Source: Promethearchaeota archaeon | Lineage (GTDB): Archaea > Asgardarchaeota > Lokiarchaeia > Sigyniarchaeales > SOKP01 | Assembly: GCA_048938445.1 (NCBI GenBank) | Contig: JBHLME010000062.1 | Coordinates: 1 to 24,976, forward strand | DNA: 24,976 nt | Direction of reading: 5' to 3' | In this document: positions 8,371 through 11,758 of the stretch, piece after piece | Layout: every line of letters starts with the position of its first letter | How positions within the stretch are numbered: the first letter of the stretch is position 1 | The notes under the pieces: generated by a model | Told to the model about the DNA's origin: nothing | What the model saw: only the letters and a program-made list of their open reading frames with translations | Database searches by the model: none | Translations under genes and position numbers: made by a program

Positions 8371-10447
8371 TTATTTTACTTTAGATCCTGGTTTTATATC
8401 CTTTTCGGGAGTAAGAAATGCAACATTTTCACCGTCATCAGCGGCTAATAGCATTCCTTGACTAAAAATACCTTTGAGTTTTCTTGGCTCTAAATTTGTT
8501 AAGATAATTATTTTCTTACCTAATAAATCATCATTACTATAGAAATCTGCCAAGCCAGCAACTAAAGTTCTTGTTTCAGTTCCAATATTTACTTTTAGTT
8601 TTAATAATTTATCTGCTTTGGGTACTTTTTCAACACTCTCAATCACTCCTACTCTAATATCAAGTTTGCTAAAGTCTTCATAAGAGATAAAATTCTTTTT
8701 TTCTTCCATTGAATCTTCCTTGTTTTTTAATTTATTAAGTTTTTCTTGAAGTTCTTTAACATCCAATTTTTGAAAAAGTGGTTTTGGTTTATTTATTTTA
8801 TGATTATCTTTTATGGAATTTTCATCAAAATCATACCAATTTAATTCATTCAAATTTTTTTTAATATTTAAAAATTCTAAAACTCTAGTAGAAGTATCAG
8901 GAATAAAAGGAGCTAATAATATTAATATTGCATTAACTGTTTGAATACAAATATTAAATACATGTCCTGCTCCTTTTTTATTTTCTTTTATCAAATGCCA
9001 TGGGGCTTTTTCATTTAGATAAATATTTCCTTCTTTTGCAAAATTTACAATTGCTTTTAAAGCCTTTTTTAGTTTAAATTGATCAATCAATTTACCTACA
9101 ACATCAGCGATGGTGTTTATTTTTTTAATAAATGTTTTATCTATAACATCTAATTCTCCTTTTGGAGGGACAAGGCCACCAAATTGTTTATTTATAAAGG
9201 TTAATGTACGATGAATAAAATTACCAATGTTATCATTTAATATTTTAATATTATTTTCAAATTCCGTCCAAAGAAAGGATGTATCAGATTTTTCAGGTCT
9301 ATTGATAATTAGACTGAATCTCCAATAATCTACTGGTGCAAGTTCCAATGCCTCATCAATCCAAATGCCTACACCCCGAGATTTCGAAAATTTCGCATTT
9401 TCATACATTAAGAATTCAGTTGAAGAAACATTATATGGTAGCACTAATTCTTTTGGATTATGTTTATCGTCATTATATGCAAGTAGTAATCCTGGGAAAA
9501 CAATCAGATGAAAAATAATATTATCTTTCCCAATAAAATAAACGGTTTTGGTTTTAGGATCCTTCCAAAAATAGTCAAATTTTTCAGGTTTATTAATGAT
9601 TTTCTCAGCCCATTCTTTGACAGCAGAGATATATCCTAAGACGGCCTCAAACCACACATAAATCGTTTTATTTTCAGCACCTTGAAATTTAGCAGGAATA
9701 CCCCATTTAAGATCCCTGGTTATTGCTCTCTCAGGTAAACCCTCTGCAATGCTATTTAGGCATACTGTTCTTGCATTTGGAGGGATAATCTTATTATCTT
9801 CTATAAATTTTGCTAATCTATCCTGTAATTTAGGAAAGTTCATGTACCAATGTTTAGTTTTTTTTATTTCAGGAGAATTATTACATATAACACAATAAGG
9901 ATTTTTTAATTCCAAAGGTGTTAATAATTTTTGACATTGATCGCATTGATCTCCTCGAGCTTTTTCATCTCCACAATAGGGGCATACTCCCTCGACAAAT
10001 CTATCGGGTAAAAATAAGTTATCTTGGTTACAATAGAGAGATTCTATCTCTTTTTCAAAAACATAACCATTCTTTTGAACATCGTGGTAAAAATCTTGAA
10101 CAAATTTCTGATGAGTTGGATTGTGCGTATGAGTATAATTATCATAAGAAATATTCCATTTTTCAAACAAATCCTTGATAATCTTATGATTTTCCATTGC
10201 TAATTCTTCTGCATCCATATTTTTTTGCTTAGCAGCAACGGCTACAGGAGTGCCATGGACATCTGAACCGGATACAAACACAACATCATTTCCCTTCAAT
10301 CTCTGATATCTTGCGAAAATATCTGCAGATAAAACACTCCCAATCATGTTCCCTAAATGTGGTTTTGCGTAAGTGAGCGATTTGCTTTACCTAAATCGCA
10401 TTCACATAAGGCCATGCGGAAGTTACAATCCATTTATTTTTTGACAA
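8371..10447 (-). CDS. metG: Methionine--tRNA ligase, split by a 31-nt insert: join(10447..10400, 10368..8371), 681 aa if the insert is removed
   Basis: Segment 1 from TTG at 10447 reads MSKNKWIVTSAWPYVN. Segment 2 reads AKPHLGNMIGSVLSADIFARY... The body has GSDVHG, Zn-knuckle cysteines (CPYC, CDQC, CVIC), ITRDLKWGI, YVWFEA, FIGKDNI, KFSKS, the anticodon domain NEKAPW and a C-terminal tRNA-binding OB fold (LDIRVG...SQGMLLAA). Confidence 0.95.
10369..10399 (-). other. 31-nt frame-disrupting hairpin insert in metG (candidate archaeal mRNA intron; boundaries uncertain by about 2 nt either way)
   Basis: Minus-strand sequence GCGATTTAGGTAAAGCAAATCGCTCACTTAC. It has a perfect 7-bp stem GCGATTT/AAATCGC with a 9-nt loop. 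TAG (10393-10391) stops the upstream frame and TAA (10389-10387) stops the downstream frame. Intronic TCAC pairs with exonic GTGA. Confidence 0.7.
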
Positions 10448-10459
10448 ATTAAGAATTCT

Positions 10460-10464
10460 TCACC
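10460..10464 (-). promoter_or_regulatory. Possible Shine-Dalgarno-like GGTGA upstream of the metG TTG start
   Basis: GGTGA ends 12 nt before TTG 10447 in otherwise AT-rich DNA. An in-frame TGA at 10462-10460 rules out an earlier start. Confidence 0.35.
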
Positions 10465-10582
10465 AGAAAATATTTTATTTAATAATAAAAAGTGTTCTTT
10501 GATTAAATATTTTAGATTAAATATGGATTAACGATTATTAATAAAAACTAAGAAATGAATTAATGAGTTTTATATAGACTAT

Positions 10583-11758
10583 TTATCTATTTGTAATTTG
10601 AGAACCACAATATCTACATGCCTTAATATCTATAATAATTTTATTTAAACAAGTTTCGTGATAATAAGCTTTACATTTACTACATTGAAAAACATTAGTC
10701 TCATTTGAAAAAATATTCCTACAATAAGAACAAGAAGCATCAATTTTCCCGATTTCATCTTCAGGAATCGATATCATTTCAGTTGTTTTTTCATTTTCAA
10801 TAATTTTTATTCTTTTAGTGCTTATTTTATCATCATCAAATAATGCAATTACAGATTTAGGTACTTTTAATAGGAAGAAACAAAAGGGACATCTGAATAT
10901 GTTCTCTTTTAATTCTGATTTTTTCGCCCATTGTGCAGCACAAGAAATATGCATTGTGCGATCACATGAAGGACAACTTCTCCCTTCCGTAAAAAAATCA
11001 GCTCCTGTTAAAGGTGCTTTAATTGAATGACAAATTGCACATTTTTGTTTTTCAATTATTTTTCCACTCATTAACATTTGTATTTCCGCTAATGAGGGCC
11101 TTCTAAGTGATAAAGCAATTTCACTAATTAATGGTGTTTTATCCTCTTTTATTTGAGCATAAAATTCATTTGATTCTTTAATTGTCTTCTTAGATGCAAA
11201 CGATTTTCCAGAATTTATAATAGCTTTTACATTATTAAAATATCCAAATTCTCCATCAGTTAATTGAGCGATTAGTTTTAATGAACTTTTTTCTTCATTC
11301 AGAGTCTTACCAAATTGACATGTATCAATAAAAATTCCTAATCCTTTAGCTATATTAACAATTTTTTTTAACTGTTCATTGAATTCAATAGATTTTAAGT
11401 CGCAGATGACAAAAATTCTAAAAATCTTTCCTCCAACTTTTCGCATCTCTTCAACTAGAATTTGAATTGCAAAAGATATTCCTTCATGTAATATTGCTTT
11501 ACCAGATACATCTATTCTTTCTAACGAATTCATTAATTGTTCCTCATCAAATGAAAATGGAATAATCTTTTTAGGAGATTTACCAATTGTTAAAATGGAG
11601 ATCCGGTCTTTAGGATCTATAGAAAATTTAGTTTGAATAAAAAGTTTGATGATTTCAAAAGCGACATCAAGTCGTCGCGGCTCAAAATCATTTCTCATCA
11701 TTGAACGAGATGTATCAAGAATTACTACCGTGTCTTCTATACGCTCAGTTGATCCCAT
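10583..11758 (-). CDS. VWA domain (Ssl1/p44/Rpn10-like) protein with two C-terminal RING/PHD-like zinc fingers
   Basis: MIDAS-type start ILDTSRSMMRNDFEPRRL. Finger 1: CAIC..CPSC-x4-H-x2-C..CPFC. Finger 2: CSYC..CSKC-x4-H-x2-C..CRYC. Both follow a C4HC3 pattern. Confidence 0.85.
   Translation of the reverse strand: MGSTERIEDTVVILDTSRSMMRNDFEPRRLDVAFEIIKLFIQTKFSIDPKDRISILTIGKSPKKIIPFSFDEEQLMNSLERIDVSGKAILHEGISFAIQILVEEMRKVGGKIFRIFVICDLKSIEFNEQLKKIVNIAKGLGIFIDTCQFGKTLNEEKSSLKLIAQLTDGEFGYFNNVKAIINSGKSFASKKTIKESNEFYAQIKEDKTPLISEIALSLRRPSLAEIQMLMSGKIIEKQKCAICHSIKAPLTGADFFTEGRSCPSCDRTMHISCAAQWAKKSELKENIFRCPFCFFLLKVPKSVIALFDDDKISTKRIKIIENEKTTEMISIPEDEIGKIDASCSYCRNIFSNETNVFQCSKCKAYYHETCLNKIIIDIKACRYCGSQITNR

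Follow-up and report, generated by a model that had tools for sequence, protein, structure and literature searches.

How could a working methionyl-tRNA synthetase (MetRS) be made from a gene whose N-terminus lies in a different reading frame from the rest of the enzyme, with a stop codon closing each of the two frames? This question is raised by metG of a Promethearchaeota archaeon (Lokiarchaeia; Sigyniarchaeales), which we analysed in a stretch of 24,976 nucleotides (nt), hereafter the window (assembly GCA_048938445.1, contig JBHLME010000062.1, positions 1 to 24,976). Comparative and structural evidence points, with a probability of about 0.8, to the 31-nt insert between the two frames being a bulge-helix-bulge (BHB) intron in the coding sequence of an Asgard metG, spliced by the endonuclease EndA and the ligase RtcB. 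What the sequences show is a real, conserved insert in a single-copy gene with selection on both exons, a geometry that fits and a genome that encodes the enzymes; cleavage and ligation themselves are what we infer from these features. An earlier note, made from the letters of this DNA, had proposed a miniature mRNA intron; the idea of an intron in an intact metG is supported by the comparative evidence, whereas the splice register it chose, the role of a hairpin in it and its idea that splicing could regulate MetRS are not.

The split metG gene and its insert

The 658-amino-acid (aa) open reading frame (ORF) at 8371..10347 on the minus strand is metG, as judged by the Pfam matches tRNA-synt_1g (PF09334, 1.7e-135), Anticodon_3 (PF19303) and tRNA_bind (PF01588). 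The tRNA-synt_1g match covers profile positions 21-391 of 391, and because it begins at position 21, the N-terminal HIGH region is absent from this ORF, in which KFSKS, presumably the KMSKS-type motif, is visible. The missing N-terminus is encoded upstream in a different frame, which from TTG at 10447 reads SKNKWIVTSAWPYVNAI (...KNKWIVTSAWPYVNAI before the stop) and ends at TAG 10393-10391, while the downstream frame is closed by TAA 10389-10387, giving the arrangement TAG-G-TAA. Deleting 31 nt produces a single frame with normal MetRS spacing, and the motif at the HIGH position, HLGN, is contiguous with WPYVNA only once the insert is removed. The insert, the split frames with their closures and the missing N-terminus had been described in the earlier note and are all present, as are the two pairings it listed, the stem GCGATTT 10399-10393 / AAATCGC 10383-10377 and the pair GTGA 10405-10402 / TCAC 10376-10373. 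The spliced coding sequence of the window would encode 681 aa and consists of the following parts.

10395..10447, minus strand: metG exon 1, 53 nt, TTG start, encoding SKNKWIVTSAWPYVNA and the first two bases of an Ile codon
8371..10363, minus strand: metG exon 2, from the third base of the Ile codon through PHLGN onward to the TAA stop
10460..10464, minus strand: Shine-Dalgarno-like GGTGA, 12 nt 5' of the TTG start

Similar motifs (GGTGA, GGTAA or GAGGT) precede the start codons of uninterrupted metG relatives. The gene immediately upstream of metG is a 391-aa ORF (10583-11758, minus strand) with Cys-rich C-terminal motifs that include several CxxC pairs.

The earlier note had called for a check that the insert is real DNA, and independent contigs from two other studies provide it: both cross the insert with 0 differences (X5 record 14, positions 10341-10474; X8 record 21, positions 10346-10496). 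Another X8 contig, from a diverged relative, has a net absence of 31 nt and reads GCG ATT CCT CAT. An insert with substitutions is also found in the assemblies of five other species. An assembly or sequencing artefact, in favour of which there is nothing but the coincidence of 31 nt with a common k-mer size, is refuted by these independent contigs and species, and its probability is negligible.

The distribution of the insert was followed with degenerate-pattern scans, which detected it at this place of metG in 6 of 135 genomes of the family, the same 6 among the 154 genomes of the order. Since the reversed-pattern control of the order scan gave 0 matches, these six occurrences are beyond chance. 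Three of the six genomes belong to the genus of the window, namely its own genome (G000) and the congeners G002 and G004, and carry the 31-nt insert; the other three (G006, G135 and G136) belong to another genus, where 3 of 42 genomes carry a 32-nt insert of unrelated sequence located one base upstream. In the own genus, the insert is present in 3/3 genomes in which metG was found, the congeners G001, G003 and G005 having given no MetRS match. A set of 41 related genomes provided 30 metG loci, of which 4 have an interruption at the insert place, 25 have none and 1 is cut off by a contig end. A degenerate-pattern scan of metagenomes returned four loci, none of which was an interrupted metG (two uninterrupted MetRS genes with a chance upstream match and two unrelated loci). 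When the whole genome was searched for other copies of the insert with blastn-short, only chance matches of 11-17 nt were obtained; the insert is not repeated and is therefore not a multi-copy mobile element. An Rfam search of the insert gave only a chance match to BSnc150 (E 0.89, 17.7 bits, where the gathering score is 73).

MetRS is an essential aminoacyl-tRNA synthetase. One could imagine a decaying gene hit by a disabling insertion, with the working MetRS encoded on unassembled DNA, or a contig that is a contaminant. The assembly is a draft in 256 contigs with 96.5% completeness and 8.2% contamination, and the lack of a MetRS match in three congeners indicates that such bins sometimes miss metG. 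Nevertheless, the genome holds a single MetRS: PF09334 scores 468.6 bits for metG and 88.4 bits for the next match, which lies in a 942-aa frame, and this and the other weak matches (frames of 485-1070 aa) are read as other class I synthetases. The second intact metG that the earlier note associated with recent pseudogenisation was thus not found by the PF09334 search in this draft. The spliced products of the six intron-bearing genes are 680-685 aa long where the locus contains the whole gene. The ratio of non-synonymous to synonymous substitution rates (dN/dS) of the spliced coding sequences is 0.026-0.126 in the 10 of 15 pairs with computable dS, with synonymous sites near saturation, and there are 0 further stops or frameshifts in 2 kb of metG in any of the six species. 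Both metG exons are under strong purifying selection, and the exon 1 peptide is kept in G002 and G004 through synonymous changes. A single MetRS, a low dN/dS and a retained exon 1 peptide together imply that the two frames must be joined. As the insert itself is also retained and constrained across species and occurs wherever metG was found in the own genus, decay of metG is very unlikely.

The constraint on the insert is strong in the own genus, where it differs at 3, 7 and 4 of 31 positions in the three comparisons (3/31 between the window and G002, 7/31 between the window and G004), in contrast to 61-65% at 4-fold sites (binomial P 4e-9 to 2e-6). The contrast is weaker in the other genus, with 22-31% in the intron against 36-48% at 4-fold sites.

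If the frames must be joined, it could be done during translation by programmed frameshifting or by stop readthrough across the insert, in which case the HIGH loop would gain about 10 residues. A frameshift would suit G002, whose downstream frame opens immediately after GUGA and shares about 10 nt with the upstream frame. In the window, however, TAG 10393-10391 precedes TAA 10389-10387, so that no single shift suffices, and the six genes have neither a slippery motif in common nor a conserved geometry. We regard the chance of such a mechanism as minimal.

Predicted splice register, fold and competing hairpin

All 13 registers that keep the excised length were scored for each gene against a published BHB definition. 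As restated in a preprint, four exon bases 5' of the 5' bulge pair with four intron bases 5' of the 3' bulge, the bulges are 3 nt long, and the outer helices are designated h (exon) and h' (intron) (10.64898/2026.10.13.758758). The cut was placed after the second bulge base, a convention that we reproduced on one tRNA of the same genome, tRNA-Ser CGA (37/38). It is the sole placement that fits the tRNA anticodon stem as h for a 37/38 intron.

Exactly one register stands out in each of the six genes, and it restores the frame in 6/6 with the product WPYVNA[I/V]PHLGN. In the window this register is 10394-10364, the sole one of 13 with 4/4 central pairs, and the elements that it defines are as follows.

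10364..10394, minus strand: predicted 31-nt BHB intron, conserved in G002 and G004
10397..10400, minus strand: central 4-bp helix, exon strand UGCG, with 4/4 pairs, also in the free minimum free energy (MFE) fold
10366..10369, minus strand: central helix, intron strand CGCA, from register scoring and folds
10394..10396, minus strand: 5' bulge AUU, predicted cut between 10395 and 10394
10363..10365, minus strand: 3' bulge AAA, predicted cut between 10364 and 10363, followed by unpaired C 10362
10389..10393, minus strand: intron helix h', UAGGU with ACUUA 10374-10370, 5 contiguous pairs in the window
10384..10386, minus strand: inner intron pairing, AGC 10386-10384 with GCU 10378-10376, from folds
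10403..10407, minus strand: outer exon-exon helix, AUGUG (Tyr-Val codons) with 10361-10357, from MFE folds

The central helix UGCG/CGCA is kept with 4/4 pairs in G002 and G004, and the bulges are in the same places as in the window. As one would expect of a bulge base within an intron, the middle position of the 3' bulge varies, being A in the window, U in G004 and C in a contig from X5. In the 32-nt type, ACGC on the exon side faces the intron strands GUGA (G006, 3/4 pairs), GCGU (G135, 4/4) and ACGU (G136, 3/4), the helix h' has 10, 2 and 9 pairs, respectively, and h has 2 pairs in each gene. A flanking helix h or h' with two or more consecutive pairs is thus present in G000, G006, G135 and G136 and, strictly taken, not in G002 and G004. 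When introns were shuffled in 20,000 trials, the fraction matching the observed quality was 0.0005 for the window, 0 for G006, 0.0001 for G136 and 0.0064 for G135. Folded without constraint, the local 56-57 nt have the BHB-constrained structure as their MFE fold in 4/6 genes and nearly so in the other two. In all six genes the Tyr-Val and Pro-His codons also fold into the outer helix AUGUG/CACAU, at an offset from the central helix.

The residue at the junction can be compared with 51 intronless relatives, which read VNAI in 19, VNAT in 11 and VNAV in 4 cases. The register 10394-10364 gives Ile, the commonest residue there, and the closest intronless relative (L052) reads GTG AAT GCG ATA CCT, which matches the predicted junction. 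The register favoured in the earlier note, 10400..10370 with the pairing GUGA/UCAC, lies six bases upstream and fares worse in both respects: it has a 2-nt 5' bulge, 3/4 central pairs and an h' of one pair, and it puts Lys (VNAKPH) into the product of the window and of G002, whereas 0/51 intronless relatives have Lys there.

The exon synonymous sites fit the BHB fold as well. The combination of Val GTG and Pro CCA, which form the outer helix, occurs in 6/6 intron-bearing genes and in 3/51 intronless ones. For Asn, the own genus uses AAU, the U of which pairs with an A of the intron, and the other genus uses AAC, the C of which pairs with an intronic G.

These patterns also bear on translational bypassing, in which the ribosome would take off near AUU UAG/UAA, skip 31 nt and resume at CCA CAU on an unspliced mRNA. 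T4 gene 60 and the mitochondrial byps likewise combine a short insert, an in-frame stop and a hairpin in an otherwise intact essential gene, and in length the metG gap falls among known bypasses. Directly after AUU the own genus has a stop (UAG in the window and G002, UAA in G004), and a hairpin is located at the take-off site. Nevertheless, the matching take-off and landing codons of these systems are absent from metG: the take-off AUU would face the landing AAA in the window and G002 or AUA in G004, and the 32-nt type, with its stop three codons beyond GCA, has no candidate take-off codon (GCA, GAU/AAU, AAU/AUU, UCU) that matches the AUU/CUU before CCA. Take-off at that stop would insert three residues into the HIGH loop. 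Bypassing also leaves the BHB geometry and the synonymous-site pattern of the exons unexplained, and we know of no bypass reported in archaea. We thus consider it highly improbable as the way in which metG is read.

Several observations weigh against an EndA-cut BHB intron. Taken alone, G002 and G004 do not beat the shuffles (0.067 and 0.084 of 20,000); in both, h' is interrupted after one pair, with further pairs beyond the mismatch, and the MFE fold widens the 5' bulge into a 5x1 loop. The outer helix of the window is offset by two unpaired A on the 5' side and an extra C on the 3' side, so that strictly h = 0. Among the three 32-nt introns, two are relaxed, with 3/4 central pairs. For the exact place of the cut within the bulges we relied on the tRNA 37/38 convention, checked on a single tRNA. 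The earlier note had suggested looking for inserts with covarying stems across relatives, and although the inserts do recur in the order, no compensatory double substitution supporting the helices was found within the own genus; of the three changes between the window and G002, two break an h' pair and one makes a pair. A competing fold must also be considered.

10377..10399, minus strand: alternative 7-bp hairpin GCGAUUU/AAAUCGC, which uses the GCG of the central helix and thus excludes that helix

The earlier note described this hairpin as a stem formed by the insert; it is not the intron helix of the BHB but a competitor of the central helix, and it gains a U-C mismatch in G004. It is near-isoenergetic with the BHB fold, with -10.8 (enforced) against -11.6 kcal/mol in the window, -11.1 against -11.7 kcal/mol in G002 and -8.7 against -8.3 kcal/mol in G004. 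In the three own-genus species the hairpin has pair probabilities of about 0.25-0.35, compared with 0.60-0.74 for the central helix (about 0.27 and 0.72 in the window). The bistability of the two folds might explain the unusual conservation of the intron.

The relaxed motif in G002 and G004, the two near-isoenergetic folds in all three own-genus species and a conservation beyond the apparent need of a simple hairpin would also suit removal of the RNA by another nuclease and ligase pair, or a bistable regulatory element that is removed conditionally. Against this stands the finding that the register fitting the EndA ruler also restores the conserved protein in 6/6 genes, and to our knowledge no other archaeal system excises about 30 nt precisely. 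We regard this explanation as improbable, albeit less so than a ribosomal bypass.

We therefore return to splicing by EndA and RtcB, which would proceed as follows. In the pre-mRNA, exon UGCG would pair with intron CGCA into the 4-bp central helix flanked by the AUU and AAA bulges, the remaining intron bases would form a hairpin, and the Tyr-Val and Pro-His codons (AUGUG/CACAU) would form the outer exon-exon helix. After a two-subunit EndA had cut within each bulge, RtcB would ligate the exons to ...GCG AU/A CCA... (the slash marks the junction), that is WPYVNAIPHLGN, giving a 681-aa MetRS with a HIGH-type motif. The peptide spanning the predicted spliced junction would be ...SAWPYVNAIPHLGN..., and the 32-nt intron of the other genus is expected to work in the same way.

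Splicing enzymes, origin of the predicted introns and search for others

The genome encodes two EndA paralogs (PF01974, 107.4 and 69.7 bits), which is consistent with a two-subunit enzyme, and RtcB (563.7 bits). The EndA genes are located at C26:40624-40848 and C80:11345-11590. For the Asgard group, the preprint cited above reports tRNA genes heavily interrupted by introns, with repeated gains and relaxed motifs, and an EndA of the (alpha-beta)2 type in 44/60 genomes (10.64898/2026.10.13.758758).

In a MetRS gene tree (quick maximum-likelihood method, 59 rows, midpoint root), the three genes with the 31-nt intron form one clade (support 100), whose sister is the intronless L052, and the three with the 32-nt intron form a clade (support 99) within the other genus, adjoining the intronless G139, G137 and G115. 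A single ancient gain would require about eight or more losses. Two independent gains at adjacent bonds of the same hairpin loop are more parsimonious and, while unproven, probably took place; the gene tree was made by a quick method, and intron loss may be easier than gain. We hypothesize, tentatively and with the odds clearly against it, that a small mRNA hairpin in metG, built from the Tyr-Val and Pro-His codons and similar to an anticodon arm, has had its loop colonised twice by BHB introns, and that in the own genus the bistable intron, whose two folds differ by no more than 1 kcal/mol, gates MetRS synthesis through splicing. If this were true, Asgard archaea would regulate genes via protein-mediated mRNA splicing, and the metG site would be a natural model for the entry of introns into coding genes in the lineage closest to eukaryotes.

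A motif-based scan of the own genome for further BHB introns was uninformative: it produced 964,257 raw matches and 4,230 ORF-joining candidates at 1,880 sites, and a Shine-Dalgarno filter left 1,241 sites, which is essentially every adjacent same-strand gene pair. A motif-free scan for split genes was based on paralogy and covered 11,875 frames of at least 60 codons and 4,474 adjacent pairs. In 39 pairs the two frames align consecutively to one paralog, and 20 of these are separated by single in-frame stops; among the other 19, only two junctions suit both a BHB and the paralog, and these are weak (h' 2) and do not convince. A second convincing coding-sequence intron was thus not found in G000 by this limited scan, which is blind to exons shorter than 60 codons and to genes lacking paralogs, and this is a further point against the intron reading of metG. 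In cbf5 of the same genome, the TruB_N domain is continuous.

The paralogy scan yielded several observations in their own right. Of the 20 single in-frame stops, 12 are TGA. In a paralog family of about 650 aa, at least five copies (C20:4734, C204:3270, C117:2685, C4:5939 and C214:61309) contain one in-frame TGA each, at one and the same position of the alignment and within TGT-NNN-AT[AT]-TGA (Cys-x-Ile-TGA), and an uninterrupted 674-aa paralog exists; this TGA looks like a CxxU selenocysteine site rather than a sign of broken genes. A 1168-aa paralog on C4 is matched in consecutive parts by several neighbouring frames on C218, C37 and other contigs, the frames being split by a stop or by short overlaps (e.g., TAA at 3917 of C218, and a 13-nt overlap at C218:10350-12521); they may represent a large gene in multiple copies that have decayed or undergone frameshifts.

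For the tRNA genes, ARAGORN called 44 tRNAs in G000, 21 of them on C215 and 15 with introns. Only tRNA-Ser CGA, 1 of the 14 introns tested (a 1,634-nt call was left out), fits a canonical BHB at the stated length. The ARAGORN intron calls are unreliable for this genome and its tRNA genes are poorly captured, as expected for heavily interrupted Asgard tRNAs. The 21 tRNA genes at C215:6483-13791 form an intron-free cluster, unlike the intron-rich tRNAs elsewhere in the genome, which may be a contaminant or a mobile or viral element (bin contamination 8.2%).

Significance and comparison with known systems

Full-text literature searches turned up neither an Asgard protein-coding gene nor any metG reported to carry a BHB intron, although supplementary files might list such cases. 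If the splicing is true, the metG intron extends BHB splicing of mRNA to the archaeal group closest to eukaryotes, and splicing by EndA and RtcB can be obligatory for making a core enzyme of translation. There is also a practical consequence, as gene callers will label such MetRS genes as N-terminally truncated or as pseudogenes. Two intron types one base apart, intronless closest relatives and exon synonymous sites that co-vary with the intron make metG a comparative system that suits the study of intron gain, of the codon constraints imposed by introns and of the substrate range of Asgard EndA.

The nearest parallel is the intron in the cbf5 pre-mRNA of the crenarchaeal Desulfurococcales and Sulfolobales, which (PMC2738675) is likewise a short BHB-flanked intron in a coding sequence, is patchily distributed with gain and loss among relatives, as the metG insert is, and is removed by the tRNA splicing endonuclease and a ligase, the same route as predicted for metG. 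The metG case differs in the gene, which encodes an essential aminoacyl-tRNA synthetase, in the Asgard lineage, and in a length of 31-32 nt beside the HIGH motif. It also has two introns one base apart that were probably gained twice, and whereas the splicing of cbf5 has been demonstrated, that of metG is deduced from comparison and structure.

A second mRNA substrate of the splicing endonuclease is the 46-nt intron in the 5' untranslated region of Haloferax volcanii HVO_1309, which is excised as a circle, and the 2020 paper that describes it names cbf5 as the sole additional BHB intron reported in archaeal mRNA (PMC7714728). The HVO_1309 intron lies in an untranslated leader and leaves the frame intact; the metG insert breaks the frame, and the protein needs its removal.

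Finally, the non-canonical tRNA introns of Asgard archaea share with the metG insert the predicted enzymes and the motif definition, as set out in the preprint (10.64898/2026.10.13.758758). The metG intron differs in that its host is an mRNA and its exon helix is made of Tyr-Val and Pro-His codons. As a result, these bases are under two constraints at once, that of the encoded protein and that of the RNA structure.

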